Positions 1 through 51,981 of a stretch of DNA of 64,000 nucleotides are shown piece by piece. The first letter of the stretch is position 1. Each line of letters starts with the position of its first letter. Origin of the DNA: an uncultured virus (IMG/VR IMGVR_UViG_3300022928_000001). Lineage: Duplodnaviria; Heunggongvirae; Uroviricota; Caudoviricetes. Location: the IMG/VR virus record IMGVR_UViG_3300022928_000001. One strand, given 5' to 3'. The notes under the pieces are model-generated. The model did no database searches and had not been told where the DNA came from. It was given only the letters and a program-made list of their open reading frames with translations. The position numbers and the translations under genes are program-made.

Positions 1-70
1 TCACCATTGCTTTTCGTTTACACTCCCACGCTAGCCAAGAGGTACGCCGGTTTTTTTGGCCCTATATAAG

Positions 71-173
71 ATACCGAGGGCACAGCTCATTACCTGTATT
101 TTAACTAGTATCATATCGCTCGTCAGCGACCCTCGGTGTAATATTGCTCCCTAAAGGTTCTCTTCAATATTAC
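71..173. ncRNA. Putative structured RNA (multibranch element plus adjacent hairpin)
   Basis: ACCGAGGG(73-80)/CCCTCGGT(130-137) encloses hairpins ACAG-N8-CTGT (82-97) and TCGCT-N4-AGCGA (116-129); GTAATATTG(138-146)/CAATATTAC(165-173) follows; GC-rich for this genome; no ORF in track. Confidence 0.45.
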
Positions 174-178
174 TTTTG

Positions 179-254
179 TGGACGTGGTAGGAGTCGAACC
201 TACGTTTGCTGATAGTGTACTTTCGAACTTTGTCAGCACTTACCCGTCACGCCC
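179..254 (-). ncRNA. tRNA-like RNA resembling the tmRNA tRNA-like domain (Ala identity), without mRNA-like domain
   Basis: GGGCGTG/CACGTCC acceptor stem with G3.U70, discriminator A, perfect T arm GTAGG-TTCGACT-CCTAC, stemless 9-nt D region, TGCTGA/TCAGCA helix with 20-nt loop. Confidence 0.75.
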
Positions 255-256
255 AA

Positions 257-448
257 TTATTTGCGTCGCCAAGATCTGTGCACTGCTGCACTTGTTGCTT
301 GGTCAACAACTTGTATTTCTAAAACCTGTTTGCTGCCAATGATTGGTACATAACTATATAGTTGTGTATCAGAGCATTGCACACAATTTCTATAACCCAT
401 TTTAATTCTAACTGGATGAACTTTATTACCGCATCTACAATATTTCAT
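257..448 (-). CDS. DksA/TraR-like C4 zinc-finger protein
   Basis: CCRCGNKVHPVRIKMGYRNCVQC fits C-x2-C-G-x2-[IV]-x3-R-[LI]...C-[VI]-x-C; coupled to upstream ORF by ATGA. Confidence 0.6.
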   Translation of the reverse strand: MKYCRCGNKVHPVRIKMGYRNCVQCSDTQLYSYVPIIGSKQVLEIQVVDQATSAAVHRSWRRK

Positions 449-591
449 AATTGTTGATTTAATATATAATTTATAACCTGAGATGGTGTACCTGTTACGG
501 TAGTCTCTTCGCCATACAAATCTTCAAATTTTAATTGATAAAACTTTGGTTTGTGTATAGCAAACGGAGTGTTGTATTTATTGCCCGCCAT
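445..591 (-). CDS. Hypothetical early protein (48 aa, MAGNKYNTPF...)
   Basis: Translated by hand; fills gap; ATGA overlap with 257..448. Confidence 0.6.
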   Translation of the reverse strand: MAGNKYNTPFAIHKPKFYQLKFEDLYGEETTVTGTPSQVINYILNQQL

Positions 592-808
592 TTTCAACTA
601 ATTCTGTAGGTTCATATTTATTTTCAATATAATCAATTAGCTTTACAGTAAAGTATTCGATAATATCATTGCCGTCGAAGCCGTCGTCAATTAATGGTTT
701 AAATTTTTCAACAGCGTATTCAACTTGCCATTCATCAATTAATGATGACATTCTTTTGAATTTGTTTTGTAAATCAATGTAATTTTGTAAGTTTGTGTTT
801 TTATTCAT
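578..808 (-). CDS. Hypothetical early protein
   Basis: ORF track; directly downstream of promoter motif; A-rich leader. Confidence 0.7.
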   Translation of the reverse strand: MNKNTNLQNYIDLQNKFKRMSSLIDEWQVEYAVEKFKPLIDDGFDGNDIIEYFTVKLIDYIENKYEPTELVENGGQ

Positions 809-828
809 ATTATTATTTTTTATTCATA

Positions 829-862
829 TATATTATCACGTATAAATTAATTTTGTAACGTA
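829..862 (-). promoter_or_regulatory. Class I (early) promoter motif, copy 1
   Basis: TACGTTACAA-N13-GTGATAATATA; both boxes and spacing identical in 4 copies upstream of minus-strand genes. Confidence 0.8.
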
Positions 863-1008
863 TTTTGTTTAAAATATTCACGTATTTGGTTCATAAGGGA
901 TAAGCCAATATCATAATTATTATAAACGTAATTTACTTTTTGGTCAATATTAAGTTCTGTTTTACTTGTGTTAACATAATCTAATATGTCAATATGTGAT
1001 CTGTTCAT
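847..1008 (-). CDS. Hypothetical early protein (53 aa, MNRSHIDILD...)
   Basis: Translated by hand; ATGA overlap with 1005..1199. Confidence 0.6.
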   Translation of the reverse strand: MNRSHIDILDYVNTSKTELNIDQKVNYVYNNYDIGLSLMNQIREYFKQNTLQN

Positions 1009-1199
1009 TTTGTTACTCTTTTAATTAAACTAAATAATAGTTGTTGTTTTACTTGTAATTCTAATTCATATAAATCATCAAATTCATTTAATTCAAAATC
1101 TGATGGATCCATTTGCCAGTGTATTGTATTGTCAATATGCTCGTCAACTTCTTCAATAATTTTGTCAGCTATATTTGCTATTAAATTTTTATTATACAT
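1005..1199 (-). CDS. Hypothetical acidic early protein
   Basis: ORF track; tight packing; D/E-rich. Confidence 0.7.
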   Translation of the reverse strand: MYNKNLIANIADKIIEEVDEHIDNTIHWQMDPSDFELNEFDDLYELELQVKQQLLFSLIKRVTK

Positions 1200-1200
1200 A

Positions 1201-1401
1201 TTAATATCCGTATTTTAAATAATGTTTAATTGTATTAGCACTTGCTTTGTTAAAAGCGTGTACTCTATCTCTGTATTTTTGATCGGTACAATATTTTTTC
1301 ATTGCATTTACGCTAGTAATACCGTGATCAGTACCATATTTTTGCTCAAATTTAGCTATTTGTAGCAATTTTTCGTCCATCATTTGTTTAGTTATATTCA
1401 T
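1201..1401 (-). CDS. Hypothetical early protein
   Basis: ORF track; downstream of promoter copy 2. Confidence 0.7.
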   Translation of the reverse strand: MNITKQMMDEKLLQIAKFEQKYGTDHGITSVNAMKKYCTDQKYRDRVHAFNKASANTIKHYLKYGY

Positions 1402-1416
1402 ATTGTTTTATTTTAT

Positions 1417-1450
1417 TATATTATCACGGTGTTTTGTATTTTGTAACGTA
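1417..1450 (-). promoter_or_regulatory. Class I (early) promoter motif, copy 2
   Basis: TACGTTACAA-N13-GTGATAATATA, intergenic. Confidence 0.8.
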
Positions 1451-1463
1451 TTTTATATAGCAA

Positions 1464-1595
1464 TTACAAATATTTTTCTTGTTGCCACTGTGGAATTTCA
1501 GAATTTAAACGTTTATAGTATTCTAATTCTAATAATTCAATTTGTGCTTTTGATATTTTTAATATCTTATTTCTTTTTACTTTACGATTTCGCAT
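1464..1595 (-). CDS. Hypothetical early protein (43 aa, MRNRKVKRNK...)
   Basis: Translated by hand; fills gap in early operon. Confidence 0.5.
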   Translation of the reverse strand: MRNRKVKRNKILKISKAQIELLELEYYKRLNSEIPQWQQEKYL

Positions 1596-6347: not shown

Positions 6348-6372
6348 TAAATTAAATTAAATTAAATTAAAT
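6348..6372 (+). repeat. (TAAAT)x5 leader running into the groEL start codon
   Basis: Five tandem TAAAT units; no Shine-Dalgarno, as expected for Bacteroidota translation starts. Confidence 0.7.
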
Positions 6373-7948
6373 GGCACAATTTGGAGGACCTAAGCTTGTT
6401 AAGCAGCTTCGTTTTAATACAGAAGCAAAAGACAAGCTTACAGAAGGAATAAATAAAATAGCAAATGCCGTAGGCTCTACATTGGGAGCAAGCGGCAGAA
6501 CGGTCGTTATAGAAGACGACTTTGGTAACCCTTATGTAACAAAAGATGGGGTTACTGTTGCTAATTCAATATTGCTCAACGATCCCGTTGAGAACTTAGG
6601 CGTTTCAATGATGAAACAAGCCGCACAAAAGACAGCGAGTATGGCAGGAGACGGTACCACCACCTCCATCGTACTGACTCAGGCCATAATCGACTGTTAT
6701 TATAAAAACAAAGGAAACGAACGTTCTTTTAGAGACATCAAAAGTGGTATTAATAAATTTAAAACCCACGTAATAAATTTTTTAGCCAACAAGGCAGTAA
6801 AAGTTGATAATGAAGAACTATATAACGTTTCTACAATATCTGCAAATAATGATGCAGAGCTTGGGGCTATTATTGCAAAAGCTTTTGAAAATTCAGGTGA
6901 CACTGGAATTGTTGCTATGGAAACTTCTCCAAACAATCAAACGTATGTTGATACCGTAGAAGGAACAAAAGTAGGAAGCACTTGTAAAACACCTCATTTT
7001 TACACTAATAAAGAAAAAGAAATAGCTGAGCTTGACAAGCCACTTGTTTTTATTAGTGCAACTGAAATACCAAATATAAGAAAAATTCAAGACATCCTGG
7101 AGCATGCTATTAAGTCTAACCGCAGCATACTCCTTATTGCACCTTTAGAATCGCAGCCGTTAACTGCACTTGCAATGAATAAAGTAAAGGGCAATATTAA
7201 GGTCAACGTTATAGATCCACCCAGCTTCGGACTTAAGCGAAAGGATATACTAGAAGATCTAGCGTTGCTTGTCGGGGCTAAAGTTTTTGACGAAAGCCTT
7301 GGGGATTCGATTGATGCAATCTCCCCTGACATGTTAGGATCAGCCGATAAGGCTCTTTCAGATAGCGAAGGTACAGTTTTAGTTATTTCTGAAAAATCAG
7401 AAGAAGCTTTAGAACGTATCGAATATTTAAAAACTGCTCTTGATAAAGAGGACAATAAAACATTGTCAAGGCATTTAAACGACAGGTTAGCATTGTTATG
7501 CGGTGGTGTATCTATTGTATATGTAGGTGCTGATACTGAAGTTGAGCTTAAAGAAAAACAAGACAGAGTAGATGATGCAATTCACGCTGTTAAAGCAGCG
7601 AGAAAAGAAGGTATTTTGCCAGGAGGCGGTTCTGCATTAGCATATGCAGCACAAACTGACTGGGAAATAGAATTAAATCAAGACGAACTAGCAGGTCTTG
7701 AAATTTTGCAAGATGCATTAGTAGCACCATATACAAAAATATTATCCAATGCAGGACTACAACCCGAAAACTTCAAATTAACCAAATGGGGAGATGGAGT
7801 TAATGTAACCTGCGGATGCGCAAGAAATATGCGGGATGAAGGAATTATAGATCCTTTCCTAGTTACAAAAACTGCTTTAAATAACGCTGTTTCTGTAGCC
7901 ACTACTATTCTATCAACTGATTGTGTAATTAGTAATATTAGAGAATAA
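6371..7948 (+). CDS. groEL: Chaperonin GroEL
   Basis: VTKDGVTVA, AGDGTTT, ELKEKQDRVDDA, GILPGGG, GIIDP. Confidence 0.97.
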   Translation: MAQFGGPKLVKQLRFNTEAKDKLTEGINKIANAVGSTLGASGRTVVIEDDFGNPYVTKDGVTVANSILLNDPVENLGVSMMKQAAQKTASMAGDGTTTSIVLTQAIIDCYYKNKGNERSFRDIKSGINKFKTHVINFLANKAVKVDNEELYNVSTISANNDAELGAIIAKAFENSGDTGIVAMETSPNNQTYVDTVEGTKVGSTCKTPHFYTNKEKEIAELDKPLVFISATEIPNIRKIQDILEHAIKSNRSILLIAPLESQPLTALAMNKVKGNIKVNVIDPPSFGLKRKDILEDLALLVGAKVFDESLGDSIDAISPDMLGSADKALSDSEGTVLVISEKSEEALERIEYLKTALDKEDNKTLSRHLNDRLALLCGGVSIVYVGADTEVELKEKQDRVDDAIHAVKAARKEGILPGGGSALAYAAQTDWEIELNQDELAGLEILQDALVAPYTKILSNAGLQPENFKLTKWGDGVNVTCGCARNMRDEGIIDPFLVTKTALNNAVSVATTILSTDCVISNIRE

Positions 7949-8202
7949 TGGAAGCAATAGGTAATTATGTAGTTTTAGAAGAAGTCTTAGAGGCTTCCAC
8001 AAAGACACAGGGAGGCTTAGAATTAGCTGAAAAGCACAGAGAAGATATTAGGTATAGAAAAGCAAATATAATCTCTTCAGGGCCAGATATACTCAAGAAA
8101 GGTCAAACAGTACTTTTTGATAGAATTGCTGGTTATCCTGTAGAGCACGAGAATAACATTTATAAAGTTATTAATCTACGTGATATTGTAGCTATATTGT
8201 AA
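7948..8202 (+). CDS. groES: Co-chaperonin GroES
   Basis: KTQGGL mobile loop, KKGQTVLF, DIVAIL; coupled to groEL. Confidence 0.85.
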   Translation: MEAIGNYVVLEEVLEASTKTQGGLELAEKHREDIRYRKANIISSGPDILKKGQTVLFDRIAGYPVEHENNIYKVINLRDIVAIL

Positions 8203-27090: not shown

Positions 27091-29321
27091 TGTATAAACA
27101 AACTTTATATAAAATACACACAGAGCACTTATCTGATAAAAAGATAAAGAATCATAATAAACATAAAAAGTTTAAATATGGTTATAATGAAGATTTAGAT
27201 TGTGTAATTATAAGCAAAGATGGCACGCTGGGTGATATATATGAAATTCAAGGTCTAAAGGTAGGAATACCTAAAACTCCAAATAAAATAGATGGTGAAG
27301 ACCTTAAAAAAGAAGATCAAGTATTTAAGCAAGTATCCAAGCCCGCATCATTAAATAAAATAAGAAACTTAATTGATTTTAAAGAATATGCGGAAGATAT
27401 TAAAGAGCAGTACTATACTTATATTGAAAATGAGTTTAATCACCGCTCTAATGGCTACTGGTTCATGTGCAACAATGAGCCTTGTTACATTACAGGATCG
27501 CACTATATATACCTCAACTGGACGAAAATTGACGTTGGAGCACCTGATTTTAGACAAGCCAACAGAATCTTTTATTACTTCTGGGAGGCTTGCAAGGCAG
27601 ATAGAAGATCTTACGGAATGTGCTACCTTAAGAATAGACGGTCTGGGTTTAGCTTTATGGCATCCTCAGAAACTGTTAACTTGGCAACAATATCCAAAGA
27701 CTCTAGGTTTGGCATCTTATCTAAGACTGGTGCAGATGCAAAAAAGATGTTCACAGATAAGGTGGTACCAATATCCATTAATTACCCGTTCTTTTTCAAA
27801 CCAATACAGGACGGAATGGAAAGACCAAAGACAGAGTTATCCTACAAGATCCCGTCAAGAAGACTCACGAGAAATTCGATCAGGGAAAGTTATAATCAGG
27901 AGGAACATGGGCAGGGTCTCGACACAACAATCGACTGGAAGAACACGGGGGACAACTCGTACGACGGGGAGAAACTCCAACTCCTTGTACATGACGAATC
28001 GGGTAAATGGGAACGGCCGGACAATATACTCAACAACTGGAGGGTTACAAAAACGTGTCTTAGACTTGGAGCAAAAATAGTTGGTAAGTGCATGATGGGT
28101 TCAACATCTAATGCAATTGAAAAAGGTGGTGATAATTTTAAAAAATTATATTATAATTCAGATGTTACAAATAGAAACCGCAATGGCCAGACTGCAAGTG
28201 GATTATATTCTTTGTTCATACCTATGGAATGGGGATACGAAGGGTTTATTGACAAATTCGGGTATCCTGTCTTCGAAACTCCATCAGAACCGGTTGAAGG
28301 AATTGATGGCGAACAAATTTTTAATGGAGTCATCAATCATTGGAACAACGAGGTTGACGGTTTAAAAAACGACAGTGATGCTCTTAATGAATATTATAGA
28401 CAATTTCCAAGATCTGAAAAGCACGCTTTTAGAGATGAAACTATAAATTCTTTATTTAATCTAACTAAAATATACGAGCAAATAGATTATAATGAAGAAA
28501 TGACTTTAAAGGGTTATGTGACTAGAGGTTCTTTTTCTTGGAAAAATGGAATAAAAGATACAAAAGTTATATGGTCACCAAATAAAACAGGAAGATTTAA
28601 TTTATCTTGGATACCTCCTGTTTCTTTACAAAACAATATAATTATAAAAAATGGTATTAAATTTCCTGGTAATGATGGTCTCGGGGCCTTTGGGTGTGAT
28701 AGCTATGACATCAGCGGTACTGTTGGCGGTGGTGGGTCTAACGGTGCTCTTCATGGATTAACCACTTGGAGCATGGTAAGTGATGTGCCTAATAGTAAAT
28801 TTTTTTTAGAATATATTGCTAGACCTCAAACTGCAGAAATATTTTTTGAAGATGTTTTAATGGCGTGTGTATTTTATGGAATGCCAATATTAGCAGAAAA
28901 CAATAAACCTAGATTATTATATCATTTAAAACGTAGGGGTTATAGAGGATTTTCTATGAATCGTCCTGATAAAACAAAAATTAAATTATCTAAAACAGAA
29001 TTAGAGTTGGGTGGAATACCCAATTCATCTGAAGACATTAGACAAGCGCATGCTGCAGCAATTGAAACATATATAGAATCCCACGTAGGCAATCTAGGAG
29101 AGTCTCACGGTAATATGTATTTTCAAAGAACCTTAGAAGACTGGGCTAGATTTGATATTTCAAAAAGAACAGCGCATGATGCTTCTATTAGCAGCGGACT
29201 TGCTATAATGGCTTGTCAAAAACATTTATACCGACCCGTCGGTGAAAGAAAAACAAAAAAACTTGATTTTGGATTTTCTAAATATACAAATTCAGGATTA
29301 AGAAGTCAGATAATAAAATAA
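27090..29321 (+). CDS. terL: Terminase large subunit
   Basis: KNRRSGFS Walker A, LLVHDESGK Walker B, GCDSYD and AENNK nuclease motifs. Confidence 0.93.
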   Translation: MYKQTLYKIHTEHLSDKKIKNHNKHKKFKYGYNEDLDCVIISKDGTLGDIYEIQGLKVGIPKTPNKIDGEDLKKEDQVFKQVSKPASLNKIRNLIDFKEYAEDIKEQYYTYIENEFNHRSNGYWFMCNNEPCYITGSHYIYLNWTKIDVGAPDFRQANRIFYYFWEACKADRRSYGMCYLKNRRSGFSFMASSETVNLATISKDSRFGILSKTGADAKKMFTDKVVPISINYPFFFKPIQDGMERPKTELSYKIPSRRLTRNSIRESYNQEEHGQGLDTTIDWKNTGDNSYDGEKLQLLVHDESGKWERPDNILNNWRVTKTCLRLGAKIVGKCMMGSTSNAIEKGGDNFKKLYYNSDVTNRNRNGQTASGLYSLFIPMEWGYEGFIDKFGYPVFETPSEPVEGIDGEQIFNGVINHWNNEVDGLKNDSDALNEYYRQFPRSEKHAFRDETINSLFNLTKIYEQIDYNEEMTLKGYVTRGSFSWKNGIKDTKVIWSPNKTGRFNLSWIPPVSLQNNIIIKNGIKFPGNDGLGAFGCDSYDISGTVGGGGSNGALHGLTTWSMVSDVPNSKFFLEYIARPQTAEIFFEDVLMACVFYGMPILAENNKPRLLYHLKRRGYRGFSMNRPDKTKIKLSKTELELGGIPNSSEDIRQAHAAAIETYIESHVGNLGESHGNMYFQRTLEDWARFDISKRTAHDASISSGLAIMACQKHLYRPVGERKTKKLDFGFSKYTNSGLRSQIIK

Positions 29322-37150: not shown

Positions 37151-40100
37151 ATGCCAGAAATTAAAAGAACGTTCAACGTTGGTAAAATGAACCGCGATTT
37201 GGACGACAGACTAGTGCCTCCTGGGGAATACCGGGAAGGTTTTAATATTACTGTTGGGCAATCTGAAAGTTCGGATGTTGGTTCTATTGAAAACTTATTA
37301 GGTAATGAAGCTGTTTCTCAAAGCAATTTAGCTAATGGTAAATGTATTGGATACATAAGCGATACAGGTACAGAAAAAATATATTTTTTTGTAACAAGTA
37401 ATTCTTCCTACAACGAAACAAACACTGGGCAGCATGGTTTATTTGAATATGATCAAAAAACAAAGCAAACTACTGCACTAGTTGTTTCTGCTCAACTTAA
37501 TCTACATCAAAGCTATCCAATAACAGGAATAAATATTGTAGATGATTTATTATTTTGGACGGATAATAGAAATTATCCTAGAAAAATAAATGTAGTAACC
37601 GCTAGAAACAACACGTCTTATTATACAGCGGCTAATGATATTGATAATTTAATATCGGTCGCAAAGTTTGCACCTTACGAATCGCCAACCTTAGTATCTG
37701 CAACAAGAGAATCTAATATATCTTCTACATTTATGGAAGACAAGCTAATTAGATTTTCTTATAGATGGCAATTTGATGATAATGAGTATAGCACATTAGC
37801 TCCATTTAGTCCTATAGTTTTTTCAAGACTAAATGAAACAGATTCTATAAGTACTTCGTTATCTAATTTTGGAGAAATTGAAACGTTTGTTAATGCAATT
37901 AATCAAGTTCAACTTCAAATACCAACACCTACAGGTTACGGTATAAAAAATGTTGAGCTAATATATAAAGAGTCCGGCTCAGGAACATTATATGTTGTTG
38001 ATGATCAAGATATTACAACTGAGCCTTTTGTAAACTTTACATATTCGTCTACTGACCCGTTTCGAACATTGCCAGGCGATCAGCTTACAAGAGTTTATGA
38101 TGCAGTGCCAATTAAAGCAAAAGCACAAGAGGTTGCTGGTGGAAGATTAGTATATGGTAATTTTTTACAAAACTACGATATTCCAGATATTTCTTTTACA
38201 ATTACAAGAACAGGTGAAACTTCTGCTAGAAATAATATATTAGAAAATCAATCAGTTAAGTCAAGAAGAACTTATCAGGTAGGTATTGTTTTAGCAGATA
38301 AATTTGGAAGACAATCTCCTGTTATATTATCAAGCTCTGGTACGGATACTGTTTTTATAGATCCAGGAAATGGGGATGCAGCATCTACAACTGCGTTCAA
38401 TGCTTTGCGTATCACTTTTACAGATACTACACAAATACCATCTTGGGCATATTCATATAGAGTTGTTGTAAAACAAAGAGAACAAGAATATTATAACTGG
38501 ATTTCTACAATAGATGCTGCTAACACTGTTAATCGTTTTGGTGATAGTATAAATAAAATACCTAGAGATCAAACAGCAACTATTCCGCCAAGTACATCTC
38601 CAACAATATCACCTTGTGATGTTTCTGTATATCCTAAATTTTTATCTGGAGGTAATGTGTATACAAAACCGTATGCTAATTTAACTAAAGTACAGTCTAT
38701 TGCAAATCCATCAGGAGATGCGTTAGTAACAACAATTGATAATTCTGGTGCTTCAGTAACTAGTGGTCTTTGTGTTTTTGAAACTGAGCCGACATCTTCG
38801 GAGCTAGATATATTTTATGAAACTTCAACTGGTGGTTTAGTATCAGAAATACCGGCTACAACAACAGATATTTCATTTTTTAATTGTATACTATTAACTT
38901 TCACATCAGGTAATCACATTGAGATAAACAGAATACGTGCTGGTTTCAATGAACCATTTTTTGATATAGGTGTTCGAGCTTTTGTTGTACAAGAAAACTT
39001 TACGCAAGAAAGAAGAAAAAACACATTAATACATTCTAGTGGGCTTTTAAACTCCAGAACAGGTATTAACTATATAAATCAATTCAATGAGTCCGAGGGA
39101 GGTTTAACAATCTCATTAGACCCATTAGACGGTTCCGTACAAAAATTATTTGTTGATGATACTCAGGTTATAATATTTCAAGAAGACAAGGTCTCTAGAT
39201 CTCCTGTAAATAAAAACTTTATATATTCTGCAGAAGGCGGAGCGGTGCCTGTAACTAGTAATACACAATTTTTAGGTACAATAGCTGCATACGCTGGTGA
39301 ATTTGGAATATCACAAGATCCTCAATCTTTTGCTAGCTATGGTTTTGCAAAATACTTTACTGATAAAAACCGAGGTACTGTATTGAGGTTATCTCAAAAT
39401 GGTATTACTGAAATAGCTAAAGCTGGGATGGGAGATTTTTTTAGAGATGCTTTAAAACAATCTACACAAATAATTGGATCTTATGATGAATATAATCGCT
39501 GTTATGAGTTAACTATTATTGGGCAAGGGTTTGACAGTAATAAGGATACAAATACTGAAACGGCTAGTGAAGGGTATTTAACATTATCTTTTGATGATAG
39601 ATCTAATGGTTGGACTAGTTTTAAAGGTTTTAAACAAGAAGGCGGTATTTCATTAAATAATTATTATTATACATTTAATGGTGGAACATTATGGGAACAT
39701 CATAAGGAAAATGTAACTCATAATAATTTTTATAATTCTGGAACTCAAAAATCTTATGTAATACCAATATTTAATGATGCTCCATCTTTAATAAAACAGT
39801 ATAATGCTTTGAGTTATGAAGGTGATGAAGGATGGGGAGTTGAATATATTCAAACAGATATAGATAATTCAGGAGTAGTTCCTCAAACAGTTACTTCTTT
39901 TTCTACAACATTACAATTATTAGGTGCTGCAAATAATTCTGTTTTTAACGGTGCTAATACAGCAATTGCAAAAGAAAACGAAGGTATTTCTTGGGCTATA
40001 TTTGTTGAACCTTTAAATTCACAATTTGAATTTAAAAGCATTAGTGATATTGTTTTAACCCCTGCTGCGGGAAGCAGCTTAACTGTAACAAACCCTCAGT

Positions 40101-44520: not shown

Positions 44521-47500
44521 ATGTTTGAATATAACGGACAACAATTTACATTGGCAGAAGTTGAAGAAGCTGCTGCAAATAAAAAAATGTCACTTGATCA
44601 ATATATAAATCAATTTGGTATTAAAAAAATTGATTCACAAATTGTGGAAAAGCCACAACCTGCTGCGGAGATAGCTGCACCTGCAGTGGGTCAAACTCCC
44701 GATACGGGATTGCAGCCGGCAGTTGGTTTATTGGAATCTCCAAGACTTAATTTAGGTCAAGATTTAAAAGACGGATTAAGCCCTGAAGAAAGGTTACAAA
44801 AGAAAAGAGAAGAATATACCCAAGAAGATTTAAATTCTATAAAGTTTCAATTTGACAAAGGACCTGAGTACGGTAAAAGATTTGGTGAAGAAGCTTATAA
44901 TAAGTATATTGAAACAGGAAAAATAGACACTAACCTGCTTCCAAAACAGAACAGATTAGTAGATCCTACAACTGGCAAAAGATTAGGTGTTTCAGATGTT
45001 TTAGGTAATGTGTTTAAAAACATGCCTGAACAAAGAAAAGTTATGTGGGCTTCTACTAAAAATTTACTTTTTGAATTTGCTGAAGCTGCTGCTAAACAGG
45101 GTGCTTTAAATCAAGGGTTGGGTGCTGGCGCAAATGTTCTTGCTAGCGATGAAACTAAAGAATTTCAACAAAAATTAGCCGCGGAATCTGATAGTCTTTT
45201 TGATGAAGAAGTTAAAGCTAATTATAAAACTATTTTAAATAGCTATAATGAAATGGCTAAAAACCCTACAGGTGCTGGTATACTAGGGTCTGGCTCAACA
45301 GGTCTAGCGGGCTCAGCAAGTATGGTAGATTTAGTGGGAGGGTTAGGAACTTCAGTAACAAGTGTTGCTACATCAGTAATACCTACTATGGCGGCAACTG
45401 CTGTGGGTGGGCCTGTTGCAGGGGTTGCTGTTATGGCTAATTTAATGATACCTTCAATGGTAACAGATTATAACATTGAAAAAGCCAATACTTTATATAA
45501 AGATTTAGACACTGAAGAAGAAAGAATAAACAAATTAATAGACGAGGATAAACAAGAGCTAGGAATACCTATTGCTTTAGGTACTATAGCAACAAGTTTA
45601 GAATATATAGGATATAAAGGTATTGCAGGCAGCATAGCTAAAAACATGTCCAAGAAAGGGATGAAAGATTGGGCTAAAGCTATGTATGCCATATCTAAAA
45701 ATAAAAAAGGAGTATCCAATTCAACTGCTACAATAAAAGAATCAGCAACTGAGGTTGCTCAATTAATACCTGAATTAACTAATCAGTATGCAGCCCAAGG
45801 TTTAAGTTTTGAAGAAGGAGCTAAAAAAATGTTTATTGACGACGGCAAAGGTGGGCTTGGTGAGTTTTGGCAACAAGCTCCAGAAATAGCTATTCAAGCT
45901 GCTTTTGGTACTAGAATATTCCAAGGCGCTAGCTCTGGGCTTGTAAGAACTTTAAAAACCGTTAGAAATAAATTTCCTGGAGTACAAGGTGTTAATGAAA
46001 ATTCTTTTTTTACATTAGGAGTATTAAAACAAAGAAAAGCAACTGAACAAAATAAAGATGTTATAGAAGGCCTTGATGCGGCTATAGCAATAGAAGAACA
46101 AAAAATAAAACAAGCTGTTTTTAATGGTAACAATATAGTAAAAAAATTAGATAACAAAGAGGTAAACTCCGTTGCTAAAGCTTCCGCTAGAATAGAAGAA
46201 AATCAAGAAAAAATAGAAGATTTAAAAGCTCAAAAAGATCTTGATATAATAGATAATGCACAATATGAAACCGCAGTAGCTGGACTTAATGCTTCTATAG
46301 AAAAAGATAATGCTTTAATAGATGGTATTGTAGAAAATGCTGTAAAAAAAGAAAACATAAGGGAGGATGATCTTTCTTTTAAAACAGGCTATGATGCATT
46401 TTTAGAAGCTACTAGGGCTGAGTCTGAAGCTAAAACTAGCAATAAAATAGCTCTTGATGAATATATACAAAAAAATAAAGAGTTAAAAAATAAACTTGAC
46501 TCAGGTTTAATAACAAAATCAGAATTTGATAATCAAAAAGCCGACAATACACAAGACTATAAAAATACAAAGCAAAAGAATGATGCTATTATAGATAAAG
46601 TTAATAAAAACGTTGAATCTATTTCTTCTAGCAGCATTAAATTGTCTGTTGAATTGCAAAAAGCTTTTGACGAAGGAGTTGCTGATGGATCTATAAAAAA
46701 AGACGATAACGGTAAAAATATTATATCAAATAAAGTTTATCAAGCTTTAGAAAAAACACAAGAAGCTTTTATAAAAAAGATTTCTAATTCAGTTTTTAAT
46801 TCAATTCCAAAAGATTTGCTTGTTGCAAACACAACAAAACAAGATTACGAACAAAATGTAAAAACTGAGTTTTTAGAATTGTTAAGATCTTATGATGGTT
46901 CGGTTCCTTTAGGGGCTTTTATGCAAACTTATTTGCCAAAAAGAGCTATTGGTAAAAGAGCATTACAAGGAATATCAAATCAAAGATTTACTAATGATTT
47001 AGAAAGCAGTGCTGTGCAAGGAATGATATCTGAAGAAGACTCAGAAATTGCACCAGAAATTAAAAATATAGAAACTGCACAGGCTTTAAATATTAGCGAT
47101 GACTTATTAAGTACTATAAAAAATGCTGCTAAAAAAGCATTAGCTACAGTAAGCAAAAAAGTAGACGATATAAAATTTAAATCAGATGTTTCTAAATCTT
47201 TTAAAGATGATTTATATAAATTAATTAAAGACGCTAAAGGTCTTAAAAATACAAAAACAAATCCTGGTTTAACGAAAGCAATAGAAGAGTCTCCAGAGGC
47301 TTTTTATAATTCACTTTCTATAGAGTCCATGCGTATGGCCCGCGCTAAAGGAGGAGTAAATCCTTTTGAGCAAGCAGGTTTATTAAAAAGAGATAGCAAT
47401 GGTGATTTGCAAAAAGTAAAATTTAGCAATGATATTTTATCTAAGTTTTTAAACTATTATACAGATGAATCTTTAAAACCAGCGGCTAGATCCGATAGAC

Positions 47501-50500
47501 AAATGAATCTTATTGAAGCTTTAGTTACTTCAATGGGTGCACGCGAGGCTATAAACTTATTAGAAAATGATATTGAGTTTAGAAAAAGATTTGCTGAGCA
47601 GCAACAACAAGAGCAGTCTAAAAATGTTTTTGAGCAAGCAGCAAATAAAATAAAAAATATATTTCAAAAATCTTTTGTAAAATCAATAAAAGAATTTGCA
47701 GCATTTGGCAAAACATGGAAGGCTATTGCTAAAGATTTTAATATTAATGTATTATTAGATTCTAAAAATGAAGCGGATGTTTTAGAATTTCAAAACTGGG
47801 TTGCTGAAACGGCAACTCGTTTTTTGCCTAGAAGTTTTTTTACAAGTGGAACTTTTGCGGGCGCTGGCACATCAGCTCCTTCAAGAAACTTTTATTATAC
47901 ATCTGTTGAGCAATTAAATGAATCAATAAAAAATTCTTCTTTTGCCAAAGAGGACTCAGATATTGAAGCTGCAGTAACAAAACAAAATTATACCTCAGGG
48001 GTTGGGTCTAAAAGAAAAATTCAAGATAAATTTTTAAAAGGTCTTTGGGGTTCTGCTAAATTACAAGAGCAAAATAAATCTAAATTAGAAGGTTTAAAAA
48101 AAATATTTTTAGCTTTTGAGTCTATGATTAAGGAAGACCCAAATAATGCTAAATTTATTATAGCCATGCTAAGCAGCACTAGCCAGGGAATGGGGGGCTT
48201 TGTAAGAGTATCTGCTCCAATTAATTTTATAGCTAAAAATTTATTTGGAGTAATTGTTGAAGAGCATACTTTACCAGCTAGTTTGGTTGCAAAATATTTG
48301 TTTAACCAAGCCATGAATCAAACTGTTAATAAAGGATTCAATGGAATTAAAAATAATTATTTTCAGGGAGCTTTAGCAAAAATTGATGACAATAAACTTG
48401 CTGGATTAGGACCTGATGGTAGACCTTATAATTATAAAGAAAGAACCCCACCGGGATGGACTTTATTAGACAATATATGGGCTAGGTATTTTAATAAAAA
48501 TGTTAATAGTACATCAAACGGTATTGATCCTAATAATATTGTTTTAGCAAATAATAAAACTGTTGCAGAAGAATTTAATGTTGGTTTTGACGGATCAATT
48601 ATACCTGATGTTAAAAAACTACAACAAGAAGCTATAGCTGAGCAAACAGAAGATCAAGTAGAAAACCTAATTGATAGAGCTATAGCTAAGTTAACAGAGC
48701 TAACTGGAACGGAAGGAACTTTGCAAACTAATATAGGGGCTGTGCCAATTAATATAATTATTGGAGGTTTAAGAGCAACTAAATTAGCTTATCAAGGTGG
48801 AAAAGCTTTAGCTGATGCAATAGCTGATGGTTATAAAAAAGTTAAAGGCTACATGAGTGCTAAAGAGTGGTCTGATTTTGTAACACAATACACCAGTGAA
48901 GTAAAAAACGAAAAAAATCCTTCACAAGTTAAATTAGCAATACTTTCTGAAAAAGGGGTTGCTCAAGTGCAAGAGCAAGCTAGAAAAACAAATGAAGCTT
49001 TATTAAATAGCTTAGGCATAGAAACAGAAGGGTTAACAACAGAAGAAATTGTTGATAAAATAAATACGCTAAGAAAAGCAAAAGTAGCAGCAGCAAATAA
49101 AAAAGCACCAACTAAGAAGGCTAGAGTTTTTGATTTTGATGACACTCTAGCTAAAACTAAATCTAACGTGCTATACACGCTTCCAGATGGCACTTCAGGA
49201 AGTTTAGATGCTACACAATTTGCAGAACAATATAGCGAGTTACAGGAAGCCGGAGCAACTTTTGATTATTCTGAGTTTAGCCAAGTAAAAGATGGAAGTA
49301 AAGGGCCGTTAGCTGTTCTTGCCAAAAAATTTACCGAGGCTAAAGGGGATAGAGATGTTTTTGTTTTAACAGCTAGACCCGCTGATTCAGCTAAAGCTAT
49401 ACAAGAATTTTTAAGATCAACATTAGGAATAAGTATTCCTTTGCAAAATATTACAGGTTTGGCAAATGGAAAACCTAGTGCTAAAGCTTTTTGGATTGCG
49501 GAAAAGGTTTCTGAAGGTTATAATGATGTATTTTTTGCGGATGACGCTGCTGCTAATGTAAAAGCAGTTGCCTCTATGCTTGACAACTTAGGTGTTACTA
49601 AACGAGTGCAACAAGCTAAAGAAACTGATCAAAAAAGCCTTGAAGATGAAATGGATTCTATTATTAGAGGTAAGAAAAGATCTAAAATAGCTAAATTTTT
49701 AAGTAAAATTAATATTTACATTCCGCCTGGAGCGGATGATTTTGCTGGACTGCTTCAATATTTTCAAGCCAAAGGAAAGTTAGGAGAAGAACAAATGCAA
49801 TGGTTTCAAGATAATTTATTAATTCCTTTTTCTAAAGGCATTGCCGCATTTACTTCTGCTAAAGTTACATTAGCTAGTGATTTTAAAGAATTAAATAAAA
49901 GATTTAAAAATACAAAAACACTAGGTGTATCTTCTAAATTTAGAAAATTGCTTGATAAAAAAGTATTAGATGGATTATATACTAATGAACAAGCAGTTAG
50001 AGCTTACTTATATGATAAAGCAGGAGAAGATTTAGGTATAAATAAAGCGGATGCTCAAGATTTAATAAGTTTAGTTGAAGGTAATTCTGAATTAAAAGCA
50101 TATGCAGATGAACTTTCTAAAATAACAAAATTAGATACAGGCTATCCTCCTATTACCGAGCAATGGCTAGGTGGGAATATTGAGTCAGACATGGCTACAG
50201 TTTCTAATAGAGCACAAAGAAAAGAATTTTTGCAAGAATTTATTAATAATAAAAATCAAATATTTTCTGAGCAAAACATGAAGCTAATAAAACAGGTTTA
50301 TGGAAATGACTTTACTGACGCTCTTAAAAACATTCTTGAAAGAATGGAAACTGGCCAAAATCGTAAAAAAGGTAAAGACAAGGAATTCAACGCAGCAATG
50401 AATTGGATTAACCAATCCGTAGGTGCGGTTATGTCTATTAACATGCGTTCCGCTTTGCTTCAACAAATGTCTATTGTTAATTACTTAAACTGGAATTTTA

Positions 50501-51981
50501 ATAATCCTATTAAAATGGGATTAGCTATGGCTAATGTCCCTCAGTTTATGAAAGATTACATTAAGATATTAAACTCCGATTTTTTAAAAGAAAGAAGAGG
50601 AGGTATGGCAATTGAAGTTAATTTATCAGATATAGCAGACTCAACTCCAGGTAATTTATTCCAAAGGCTAAACAAAAAAGTTTTAGAATTAGGATTTAAG
50701 CCTACTCAATGGGGTGATAGTAATGCTATTGCATTTGGTGGAGCTTCGTGGTATAGAAATAGATATAATCAATTAATTAAAGAAGGTTTATCTGAATCTG
50801 AAGCGGATGCTCAAGCTATGTTAGAATTTCAAGAAGTTACAGAAACCTCTCAACAGTCATCAAGGGTTGATAAAGTCTCTAGACAACAAGCTTCAGATAT
50901 AGGTAGACTTATATTAGCATTTGCTAATACACCATTACAGTATGCTCGTGAAACTAGAAAAGCAACTTCTGATTTAATAAATGGAAGAGGTGATTGGAGA
51001 ACAAATGCTTCAAAAATAATTTATTATGGAGTTGCCCAAAACTTAATATTTACCGCTTTACAGCAAGGTTTATTTTCTTTGTTAATTGGTGATGATGATG
51101 ATGACGAAGAAAAAAGAAACAAAAAATTAAATTATGCAGTAAACGGAGTTTTAGACGGCATACTTAGAGGTATGGGTTACGCAGGAGCGGTAGTATCCGC
51201 GCTTAAAAACTTAAGTATGGAGTACTACGATCAATATCAAAAAAGACAAGCTGGAGAAAGAGTATATGACGGTTCCTTAAAGCTTATACAAAAGGGTCTT
51301 TCAATTTCTCCTCCTATTAGCAAAAAAATAGGTGATATTGTAGAAGCCCAAAAGTTTGAAACATGGAGACAATATAAAAACGACCCGTTTTATCAAGCTT
51401 TTGCTTACGCTAATTATGTTTCAGGAATAACTAATTTGCCGGTTGATCGTGTTTTTAAGAAAATAGAAAACTTAAAAGCCGCTTCACTGGAAAGTACTGA
51501 AACGTGGCAATCTTTGTTTTTGTCTTTAGGTTGGTCGCCTTATAATGTAGGTGTAGAATATCCTAAAAAAGTTGGAAAGAAAAAAATAATAAAAATTTCA
51601 AAACCAAAAGAACTTAAACAATATAAGCCTATTGGTGGTAGTAAAAGAAAAAAGAAATCTTTAACTGGTATAGGTTCTGGAATTCCTAAAGTTTTACCTA
51701 AAGGTGTTTTAGGTAGAGCTAATCGCGATGGCAGCATTGAAGTTGCTGAAGGATTATCTCCTACTAAAAAAAAGCAAGTAATTGCTCATGAACAAAAGCA
51801 TCAAGAGGATATGAAATCTGGAAAACTAGATTATAATAAAAAATTTATTTATTGGAATAATGAAAAGTATAAAAGAACAGCTGATAAAAAAATAAATTAT
51901 AAAGGAAAATTATATATTGAAGGTTCTCCGGCTTTACCTTGGGAAAAAGCTGCAAATAAAGCTGAAAAAAAAATTAATTAA
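44521..51981 (+). CDS. Giant multidomain internal virion/ejection protein (sigma-like, HAD, zincin modules)
   Basis: 2486 aa at end of tail block; VFDFDDTL/LTAR/FADD HAD motifs; HEQKH; sigma region 2-like segment. Confidence 0.8.
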   Translation: MFEYNGQQFTLAEVEEAAANKKMSLDQYINQFGIKKIDSQIVEKPQPAAEIAAPAVGQTPDTGLQPAVGLLESPRLNLGQDLKDGLSPEERLQKKREEYTQEDLNSIKFQFDKGPEYGKRFGEEAYNKYIETGKIDTNLLPKQNRLVDPTTGKRLGVSDVLGNVFKNMPEQRKVMWASTKNLLFEFAEAAAKQGALNQGLGAGANVLASDETKEFQQKLAAESDSLFDEEVKANYKTILNSYNEMAKNPTGAGILGSGSTGLAGSASMVDLVGGLGTSVTSVATSVIPTMAATAVGGPVAGVAVMANLMIPSMVTDYNIEKANTLYKDLDTEEERINKLIDEDKQELGIPIALGTIATSLEYIGYKGIAGSIAKNMSKKGMKDWAKAMYAISKNKKGVSNSTATIKESATEVAQLIPELTNQYAAQGLSFEEGAKKMFIDDGKGGLGEFWQQAPEIAIQAAFGTRIFQGASSGLVRTLKTVRNKFPGVQGVNENSFFTLGVLKQRKATEQNKDVIEGLDAAIAIEEQKIKQAVFNGNNIVKKLDNKEVNSVAKASARIEENQEKIEDLKAQKDLDIIDNAQYETAVAGLNASIEKDNALIDGIVENAVKKENIREDDLSFKTGYDAFLEATRAESEAKTSNKIALDEYIQKNKELKNKLDSGLITKSEFDNQKADNTQDYKNTKQKNDAIIDKVNKNVESISSSSIKLSVELQKAFDEGVADGSIKKDDNGKNIISNKVYQALEKTQEAFIKKISNSVFNSIPKDLLVANTTKQDYEQNVKTEFLELLRSYDGSVPLGAFMQTYLPKRAIGKRALQGISNQRFTNDLESSAVQGMISEEDSEIAPEIKNIETAQALNISDDLLSTIKNAAKKALATVSKKVDDIKFKSDVSKSFKDDLYKLIKDAKGLKNTKTNPGLTKAIEESPEAFYNSLSIESMRMARAKGGVNPFEQAGLLKRDSNGDLQKVKFSNDILSKFLNYYTDESLKPAARSDRQMNLIEALVTSMGAREAINLLENDIEFRKRFAEQQQQEQSKNVFEQAANKIKNIFQKSFVKSIKEFAAFGKTWKAIAKDFNINVLLDSKNEADVLEFQNWVAETATRFLPRSFFTSGTFAGAGTSAPSRNFYYTSVEQLNESIKNSSFAKEDSDIEAAVTKQNYTSGVGSKRKIQDKFLKGLWGSAKLQEQNKSKLEGLKKIFLAFESMIKEDPNNAKFIIAMLSSTSQGMGGFVRVSAPINFIAKNLFGVIVEEHTLPASLVAKYLFNQAMNQTVNKGFNGIKNNYFQGALAKIDDNKLAGLGPDGRPYNYKERTPPGWTLLDNIWARYFNKNVNSTSNGIDPNNIVLANNKTVAEEFNVGFDGSIIPDVKKLQQEAIAEQTEDQVENLIDRAIAKLTELTGTEGTLQTNIGAVPINIIIGGLRATKLAYQGGKALADAIADGYKKVKGYMSAKEWSDFVTQYTSEVKNEKNPSQVKLAILSEKGVAQVQEQARKTNEALLNSLGIETEGLTTEEIVDKINTLRKAKVAAANKKAPTKKARVFDFDDTLAKTKSNVLYTLPDGTSGSLDATQFAEQYSELQEAGATFDYSEFSQVKDGSKGPLAVLAKKFTEAKGDRDVFVLTARPADSAKAIQEFLRSTLGISIPLQNITGLANGKPSAKAFWIAEKVSEGYNDVFFADDAAANVKAVASMLDNLGVTKRVQQAKETDQKSLEDEMDSIIRGKKRSKIAKFLSKINIYIPPGADDFAGLLQYFQAKGKLGEEQMQWFQDNLLIPFSKGIAAFTSAKVTLASDFKELNKRFKNTKTLGVSSKFRKLLDKKVLDGLYTNEQAVRAYLYDKAGEDLGINKADAQDLISLVEGNSELKAYADELSKITKLDTGYPPITEQWLGGNIESDMATVSNRAQRKEFLQEFINNKNQIFSEQNMKLIKQVYGNDFTDALKNILERMETGQNRKKGKDKEFNAAMNWINQSVGAVMSINMRSALLQQMSIVNYLNWNFNNPIKMGLAMANVPQFMKDYIKILNSDFLKERRGGMAIEVNLSDIADSTPGNLFQRLNKKVLELGFKPTQWGDSNAIAFGGASWYRNRYNQLIKEGLSESEADAQAMLEFQEVTETSQQSSRVDKVSRQQASDIGRLILAFANTPLQYARETRKATSDLINGRGDWRTNASKIIYYGVAQNLIFTALQQGLFSLLIGDDDDDEEKRNKKLNYAVNGVLDGILRGMGYAGAVVSALKNLSMEYYDQYQKRQAGERVYDGSLKLIQKGLSISPPISKKIGDIVEAQKFETWRQYKNDPFYQAFAYANYVSGITNLPVDRVFKKIENLKAASLESTETWQSLFLSLGWSPYNVGVEYPKKVGKKKIIKISKPKELKQYKPIGGSKRKKKSLTGIGSGIPKVLPKGVLGRANRDGSIEVAEGLSPTKKKQVIAHEQKHQEDMKSGKLDYNKKFIYWNNEKYKRTADKKINYKGKLYIEGSPALPWEKAANKAEKKIN

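Follow-up and report, generated by a model that had tools for sequence, protein, structure and literature searches.

A probable tag-less tmRNA gene, reduced to its tRNA-like domain, beside a small four-cysteine protein gene in an uncultured podophage

The stretch of DNA analysed here (the window; 64,000 nt of the IMG/VR virus record IMGVR_UViG_3300022928_000001) belongs to an uncultured podophage of ~67 kb related to Flavobacteriia phages, and carries close to its start, in an early/replication-strand region, a small RNA element with the outline of a transfer-messenger RNA (tmRNA) cut down to its tRNA-like domain (TLD). The element occupies 76 nt of the minus strand, from G1 at position 254 down to the discriminator A at 179; its parts and its neighbours are collected in Table 1. 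Its sequence had been given in an earlier note on this DNA, which did not name the strand, and the minus-strand read of window positions 100-340 matched that string exactly: GGGCGTG / ACGGGTAAG / TGCTGA / 20 nt / TCAGCA / AAC / GTAGG TTCGACT CCTAC / CACGTCC / A. The 3' terminus is ...CACGUCCA; in the DNA, CAA follows the discriminator A, and CCA is not encoded. G1 lies 2 nt (256-255) downstream of the TAA (259-257) that ends a 63-amino-acid open reading frame (ORF) on the same strand (448..257). When the element was folded without constraints, the minimum free energy (MFE) and centroid structures both coincided with the proposed structure at -23.3 kcal/mol (z = -1.97, with 7 of 200 shuffles equally stable), and the G3.U70 wobble, discriminator A and intact T arm described in the earlier note were present and recovered by this unaided fold. 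The same note had stated that CCA is not encoded and that the D region lacks GAC, which is true of the window copy; unlike it, many relatives do carry ...TAGAC in the D region.

Table 1. Window coordinates of the RNA element, its structural parts and its neighbours
Feature	Position	Strand	Remarks
TLD-only (tag-less) tmRNA-type RNA gene (probable)	179..254	-	Sequence, MFE fold, RF00023 29.7 bits, R1 78 bits
Acceptor stem 5' strand GGGCGUG, G3 at 252	248..254	-	Pairs with 180-186 (7 bp)
D-loop analogue ACGGGUAAG, 9 unpaired nt, without D stem, conserved GG	239..247	-	
P2-like helix UGCUGA/UCAGCA, 6 bp, closing the 20-nt apical module CAAAGUUCGAAAGUACACUA	207..238	-	
AAC linker 5' of T stem	204..206	-	Aligned to AC before the T stem in RF00023
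T arm GUAGG-UUCGACU-CCUAC	187..203	-	Loop UUCGAnU essentially invariant in relatives
Acceptor 3' strand CACGUCC and discriminator A, CCA not encoded	179..186	-	
63-amino-acid four-cysteine protein gene, product ending ...HRSWRRK*	257..448	-	Conserved upstream neighbour of the RNA
Conserved spacer block with GAUACUAGUUAAAAUACAGGUAAUGAGCUG (96-111)	60..130	-	Between the mini-tmRNA and the tRNA-Met gene; one exact copy in the window

Relatives of the element were collected from IMG/VR by pattern. An exact 25-nt pattern gave matches in 2 contigs, a 5'-end pattern in 16 stretches, and degenerate T arm plus acceptor patterns in at least 120 stretches. ARAGORN, run on 128 pattern matches, called 17 tmRNAs and 5 tRNAs and left 106 uncalled. 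The 17 tmRNA calls are full-length, tag-encoding molecules with the GGGCGTG acceptor in other viral contigs, except for L017 (185 nt, with a doubtful tag), which is a long copy of the mini-tmRNA family. A typical uncalled copy begins with GGGCGUG and a D-loop analogue of 9-11 nt (commonly AAAUGGUUAG; family consensus GAAAUGGUUAGAC), continues through a helix and an apical part that varies in the family from ~8 to >100 nt, and ends with (A/U)AAC, the T arm, CACGUCC and A, usually followed by CUA.

A covariance model, R1, was made from 28 aligned copies with three helices written as structure; 91% of cells pair in this alignment, and its covariation score was 0.326 against 0.089 in shuffles. On the window and the overlapping contig G001, R1 found one copy, at 78 bits, and over 87 sources it returned 83 matches. 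The alignment of these matches is fitted to the model and has its acceptor fixed by the collecting patterns; in it 93.7% of cells pair and covariation reached 0.365 versus 0.088 in shuffles, 0 of 500 being as high, while slid partners gave only 0.03-0.09. Changes on both sides were found for all 6 P2 pairs and for 2 of the 5 T-stem pairs (pairs 2 and 3). Covariation among phage homologs, which the earlier note had proposed as a check, is thus present in the internal helix and the T stem. Since the window copy scores 78 bits with R1 and the helices covary across relatives, the element is more than a chance fold; it is a real RNA gene under selection.

We considered whether this gene is of tmRNA or tRNA type. 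ARAGORN found no gene in the whole window and Rfam at gathering thresholds gave no match there. In E-value mode on window positions 1-600, the best match of the clan was the tmRNA model RF00023 (29.7 bits, E 3.5e-10), which outscored the tRNA model RF00005 in clan competition and aligned the element at both ends over model positions 1-374, with 39 nt replacing 326 interior positions. Of 20 further loci, 16 matched RF00023 alone within the clan (20.6-41.9 bits) and 4 matched nothing in the clan at E <= 0.01. The fold of the element holds neither a D arm nor an anticodon arm with a 7-nt loop, and its D region has the GG but no D stem and no UCGAC. There is no mRNA-like domain (resume codon, tag ORF or pseudoknots) in the element, whose D region and T arm are separated by only 39 nt. 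Assignment to tmRNA is based on the absence of D and anticodon arms together with the D-loop analogue and the AC linker. The earlier note had allowed that the homologs might be canonical tRNAs, of which this would be a decayed copy. This is not what was seen: among 82 family matches, ARAGORN called 1 tRNA with a D arm (L042) and 1 doubtful tRNA (L082). Locus L042 (499-582) combines the acceptor and T arm of the family with a proper D arm, and is read by ARAGORN as a tRNA-Arg(CCG) of 84 nt; possibly it connects a tRNA with the TLD scaffold, or else it is a chimera. A permuted two-piece tmRNA (RF04321) was tried and rejected: the match of 17.1 bits (E 0.24-1.5) covered model positions 36-96 only and ran towards the window start, and a rescan including the missing 3 kb from G001, which holds a normal tRNA-Met gene instead, did not improve the score.

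The alanine identity of the RNA could be assessed in a sample collected independently of it, through the neighbouring four-cysteine protein (the best 80 of 507 IMG/VR stretches). An R1 match lay downstream on the same strand in 54 of these 80 loci, amounting to 47 distinct RNAs. G1-C72 was found in all 47, and G2-C71 and the discriminator A in 46 each; pair 3:70 was G.U in 45 and A-U in 2, and never G-C, while pair 4:69 was C-G in 36, A-U in 7 and G-C in 3. The GG of the D loop was kept in 44-45 copies and the A/A/C linker in 43-47. The acceptor is near-invariant apart from the covarying pair 4:69, and the P2 helix and T stem covary. A fixed wobble at 3:70 beside a freely covarying 4:69 is as predicted by selection for the identity element of alanyl-tRNA synthetase (AlaRS), and is not predicted by helix maintenance alone. 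Thus, the alanine identity pair G3.U70 is selectively retained in the family.

Four cysteines (C4, C6, C22, C25) are invariant in the 63-amino-acid product of the upstream ORF, and its C-terminus is basic. A homolog was encoded upstream, on the same strand, in 39 of the 53 RNA-collected family loci that are flanked by 700 nt or more. Gaps between protein and RNA ranged from -1 to 648 nt, being -1 to 2 nt in 8 of the 44 loci with the protein upstream, sometimes with an overlapping TAG, and 28-648 nt in the remaining 36. An alignment search with the protein found it encoded in at least 507 IMG/VR stretches, and a protein database held sixteen unnamed homologs. Pfam and PHROG gave no family for it, and its AlphaFold2 model, of moderate confidence (predicted local distance difference test score, pLDDT, 73.9), had no Foldseek match in the PDB at E <= 0.001. 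The first half of the protein may resemble TraR/DksA-type zinc fingers. Neither a minus-strand promoter-like site between the ORF and the RNA nor a terminator 3' of the RNA was found. The conserved synteny of the RNA with this small four-cysteine protein is new in this analysis.

The 5' region of the family could be compared with that of tmRNA in Bacteroidota, where tmRNA was found in 144 of 151 sampled genomes; the 30 best-scoring molecules and two from the Saprospiraceae metagenome-assembled genome (MAG) G002 were used. The 5' ends of these 32 read GGGG(G/A)UG-(A/U)(A/U/C)(A/C/U)UGG(A/U/C)UUCGAC..., with GAAAUGG(A/U)UUCGAC also seen, and the family 5' end, GGGCGUG-AAAUGGUUAGAC, is close to them. 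Their acceptors were GGGGGUG in 19, GGGGAUG in 11, and GGGGACG and GGGCGUG in 1 each. CCA was encoded in 10 of the 32 genes and absent from 22, and so the missing CCA of the element is normal for Bacteroidota. A search for the host by way of a GGGCGTG tmRNA pattern requiring encoded CCA was uninformative on the host, the matches listed being taxonomically mixed, and was poorly chosen since most Bacteroidota tmRNA genes lack CCA. The MAG G002 carries two tmRNA genes, of which the second (G002:C12:52052-52453, L385) is AT-rich, with a GGGCGTG acceptor and encoded CCA; this copy may be phage-derived.

RNAs of the TLD-only kind have been in print since 2009-2014, and the window element is the same kind in a different phage lineage. 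The tabulation of Hudson, Lau and Williams includes an entry 'Mycobacterium phage DS6A (TLD only)' (PMC4131195), and a 2025 tmRNA database paper has a passage that repeats it and adds plastid and mitochondrial forms without coding sequence (CDS) (PMC11915505). According to the relevant passages, tmRNA in E. coli is strongly inhibited by a DS6A-like molecule, which perhaps acts through titration of SmpB (PMC4131195, PMC11915505, citing Mao et al. 2009), a result that belongs to that molecule and not to the window element. No literature on a broad phage TLD-only family was found in the set searched, outside which many subscription papers lie. In the DS6A genome the RNA is unannotated (JN698994.1 28478-28560, within 28300-28750) and starts 11 nt after gp33. 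Its RF00023 score was 43.2 bits, 20 nt taking the place of the interior, and R1 aligned to it at all 80 model positions with 35 bits (E 7e-8 in 451 nt). Both RNAs are phage-encoded, of ~80 nt, with a 7-bp acceptor containing G3.U70 and with A as the discriminator, and neither gene encodes CCA. They share a GG-bearing D-loop analogue, one short-looped helix, an AC linker and a T arm, begin close behind an ORF (11 nt after it in DS6A, 2 nt after it in the window), and fall under the RF00023 cut-off of 47 bits with the interior deleted (43.2 and 29.7 bits). In contrast, no primary-sequence relationship was detectable beyond the tmRNA consensus, the host phyla differ (Actinomycetota for DS6A, probably Bacteroidota for the element), UCGAC of the D loop is kept in DS6A and absent from the window copy, and the element, unlike DS6A RNA, comes from a large family whose apical modules are exchangeable and which has a conserved four-cysteine protein as neighbour.

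With bacterial tmRNA (SsrA, RF00023) the element shares the G3.U70/A73 acceptor and the T arm, and its D-loop analogue is similar to the 5' ends in Bacteroidota, though UCGAC is absent; it has no pseudoknots, resume codon or tag frame, 39 nt standing in place of ~326. It resembles the reduced organellar tmRNAs, those of jakobid mitochondria and the ~65-nt form of Mallomonadaceae plastids, in having no tag frame, and the passages on these tag-less molecules present them as thought still to act with SmpB (PMC11915505, PMC3590771). The organellar forms, however, are the sole tmRNA of their organelle, whereas the element is a viral extra in a cell whose own tmRNA is presumably complete. Phage tmRNAs of full length, for which the sections concerned name the mycobacteriophage Bxz1 group, Bacillus phage G and the two-piece ssrA of the OM43 phage Melnitz, are likewise phage-borne ssrA (PMC4131195, PMC9004378), but they encode tags and the element cannot.

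The element is thus very probably a TLD-only ('CDS-less', tag-less) tmRNA, this being the best description because it accounts for the alanine identity set, the tmRNA-like D region, the DS6A precedent and the lack of coding capacity. It agrees with the structural claim of the earlier note, a tmRNA TLD without coding domain and with alanine identity elements, which was borne out by RF00023 as best match and by the conservation of G3.U70 and A73, and to which the Bacteroidota-like 5' region and the detection of the DS6A RNA by R1 add a further basis. The functional readings in that note, a decoy for SmpB, AlaRS and EF-Tu, a tag-free rescue RNA or a decoy for defences, were suggested from the sequence. 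We lean slightly towards the description and a mechanism taken jointly, in which the TLD-only tmRNA would compete with host tmRNA. A 20-nt hairpin takes the position that pseudoknots and a tag frame occupy in tmRNA. The RNA would be co-transcribed with the upstream small ORF, cut by RNase P at G1 and trimmed at its 3' end, and CCA would be added by the host, as for most examined tmRNA genes in Bacteroidota, to which the hosts of the cultured relatives belong. AlaRS would charge it with alanine by way of G3.U70 and A73, and SmpB and EF-Tu would bind the charged RNA. Since it has no resume codon, it would then draw SmpB, AlaRS, EF-Tu and stalled ribosomes away from host tmRNA, and SsrA tagging would be blocked during infection, or at most the peptide would be transferred without a tag and then drop off.

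A number of observations weigh against this interpretation. The element does not reach the RF00023 gathering score of 47 bits, although a lower score is expected when the interior is missing. A canonical tRNA-Ala of genome G002 scored 28 bits on RF00023 run alone, and therefore the RF00023 score by itself shows only an alanine-type acceptor and a T arm. The window copy lacks the UUCGAC of the tmRNA D loop, and its pair 4:69 is C-G against G-C in 31 of the 32 Bacteroidota tmRNAs. R1 gave no match above 26 bits in five cultured relatives, none of which carries the RNA. Parts of window positions 1-1500 were found in 20 RNA-library runs (best share 0.45), and in 4 of the 4 runs examined, salt-marsh and marsh metatranscriptomes from three studies, a contig covers the element; these contigs span the element and its flanks, are blind to ends, strand, level and CCA, and may be of DNA origin. 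Finally, R1 had no match in 26 of the protein-anchored loci, and 13 of these carry other mini tRNA-like units in the slot, none with G3.U70, and so the slot as such needs no alanine identity.

These other units have acceptors such as AGTGGTG/CACCACT (47 nt), TAACTAG/CTAGTTA and AGAGTTG/CAACTCT, among others, with T arms present and stems that covary. Slot units without G3.U70 were seen in L437, L441, L442 and L469 (about 1960-2030), L436, L443, L453 and L473-L475, L439 (1390-1440) and L480, and include a 47-nt type of acceptor plus T-arm with ...CUACGGUACUAAG... and the TAACTAG/CTAGTTA type with variable inserts. The remaining 13 loci comprised five with tRNA-Met only, four with less than 200 nt of flank, and four (430-600 nt of flank) that were empty. 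The presence of non-alanine tRNA-like units in the same slot of related phages is new in this analysis, as is the exchange of apical hairpin modules between elements. A 20-nt apical module is 19/20 identical between L474, of the TAACTAG type, and L037, L046 and L097, of the TLD type, and a 24-nt module is common to L475 and L120 (24/24). The window module CAAAGUUCGAAAGUACACUA itself recurs as a free-standing hairpin directly 3' of the protein stop codon in L037, L083, L109, L446 and L457, and in L457 the TLD begins 8 nt after it. Two independent viral contigs, G001 and IMGVR_UViG_3300006929_000026 (L004), end exactly 2 nt upstream of G1, and among the RNA-library contigs X3 has a 50-nt insertion between 256 and 258 and X1 diverges before 259. 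Slot variants, shared modules and contig breaks together show that the RNA region is modular and that the junction of ORF and RNA is a seam of recombination within it. A physical genome end at 255-259 was considered and rejected, strain mosaicism that breaks assemblies being the best reading given the X3 insertion and the X1 divergence.

The main rival to a TLD-only tmRNA acting on the host system is a tRNA-like processing or stability signal, at which RNase P and RNase Z would cut the early transcript directly behind the small ORF and ahead of the RNA gene that follows, the alanine-type acceptor being a legacy of tmRNA origin; mitochondrial tRNA punctuation, plant-mitochondrial t-elements and mascRNA would be its analogues. 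The close abutment of G1 on the stop codon, repeated in the 8 loci with gaps of -1 to 2 nt, is what such a signal would look like, and the lack of a promoter-like site before the RNA and of a terminator after it, and the non-alanine units in the same slot, fit it as well. Yet cutting by RNase P and RNase Z needs no G3.U70, A73 or GG, all of which are kept in nearly every one of the 47 distinct copies (45, 46 and 44-45, respectively), and in the 36 loci where the RNA stands 28-648 nt from the ORF the adjacency breaks down, so that it is not general. We therefore regard a processing signal as rather unlikely, favoured by the abutting stop codon and the non-alanine units and opposed by the identity elements.

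A further explanation is that of a scaffold-plus-cargo ribonucleoprotein (RNP), in which the TLD would be a stable, perhaps chargeable scaffold, the exchangeable hairpin would be bound by the four-cysteine protein, and the pair of hairpin and protein would be the functional part. The association of protein and RNA from either direction of sampling (39 of 53 and 54 of 80 loci) is consistent with this, but may merely reflect common descent in one phage clade. The free-standing window module in five loci and the modules common to TLD-type and TAACTAG-type scaffolds point the same way, and if the explanation were true the recurrence of hairpins, free and in two scaffolds, would be cargo swapping; against this, the free variation of the apical length is as expected of an unconstrained, insertion-tolerant loop, and the protein has no recognisable RNA-binding family or fold, its AlphaFold model being moderate. 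An RNP of this kind is distinctly unlikely. That a small RNP is carried to stalled ribosomes or SmpB in widespread marine phages, going beyond passive titration, is a proposal from sequence comparison that we consider unlikely.

Phage tRNAs are known to counter defences that cleave tRNA, and the anticodon loop is the usual target of such nucleases. By analogy with phage tRNAs only, the element might serve as a decoy or substitute substrate for host nucleases or factors that target tRNA or tmRNA, and its near-invariant acceptor could reflect such mimicry; it has no anticodon loop, however, and no defence-related gene was found nearby among the ORFs scanned, which makes this very unlikely. It is highly improbable that the element is a decayed remnant of a phage tmRNA or tRNA gene, as the missing coding domain and the failure of ARAGORN and Rfam thresholds to call it might suggest, or an attachment-site piece for integration into ssrA, of which integrating phages carry the 3' end (mentioned in PMC9004378), since the compensatory changes in two helices and the identity elements conserved over at least 47 distinct copies speak for selection, and since the element retains the 5' half of the TLD, for which an attP core has no use. 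An attP or prophage junction was rejected for the same 5' half, for the lack of an integrase among the ORFs scanned, and for the ~67-kb circle or permutation of the genome.

This last feature follows from contig G001 (39,283 nt), whose positions 1-36008 correspond to window positions 27993-64000 at 99.96% and 39028-39283 to 1-256, so that the genome is circular or circularly permuted, ~67 kb, with 3,019 nt between the window ends. A tRNA-Met(CAT) gene lies there on the minus strand (L003 18941-19014, equal to G001 38941-39014), 14 nt beyond window position 1 and thus ~190 nt downstream of the element, which is on that strand too; it scored 64.6 bits on RF00005 and was also called by ARAGORN. 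Among the 128 pattern matches, 19 have a tRNA-Met(CAT) on their own strand no more than 600 nt away. The tRNA-Met gene beside the window has an A1xA72 mismatch, which is kept in divergent copies where other acceptor pairs covary (window/L007 versus L009/L010 and L437) and recalls the unpaired 1:72 of initiator tRNA; the three G-C pairs are absent from the anticodon stem. In L143 the block GAUACUAGUUAAAAUACAGGUAAUGAGCUG stands upstream of the mini-tmRNA, and in other loci related ACUAGUUAAC motifs are found ahead of tRNA-Met or of the mini-tmRNA. As a repeated promoter, ATACTAGTTAA...AC was rejected, there being 1 exact copy in the window and, at up to 2 mismatches, 5 matches against 4.9 expected.

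The phage genes include those for terminase, portal, GroEL/GroES, ribonucleotide reductase, ThyA, MazG, Erf, a primase-helicase and an ATP-dependent ligase. The GroEL gene (6371-7948, plus strand; phrog_5725, E 3e-129) adjoins a Cpn10/GroES homolog (7948-8202, plus strand), and a 2,486-amino-acid ORF at the end of the structural block (44521-51981, plus strand) had no PHROG match and a sub-threshold SHOCT match in Pfam. The phage terminase shares 62% identity with the protein of an uncultured podovirus and 30-44% with the terminases of Flavobacterium, Cellulophaga and Tenacibaculum phages. Scans of 80 of the 84 candidate ORFs in the window, and of 9 ORFs in the gap, found no SmpB, integrase or tRNA-handling enzyme. 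Megablast and blastn searches with the flanks found no relative among GenBank phages, and blastn of the element returned 71 records with matches of T-arm length only, none covering 80%.

Trans-translation is the main bacterial ribosome-rescue pathway and a drug target. The TLD-only type of tmRNA is not a curiosity of one mycobacteriophage, but is selected and widespread in a group of uncultured marine phages with cultured relatives that infect Flavobacteriia. The family offers a compact natural set of variants that bears on how a TLD acts alone on the ribosome and on what a phage would gain from shutting off tagging, and, if the link between the four-cysteine protein and the hairpin is real, that protein would be a new partner in the trans-translation system.

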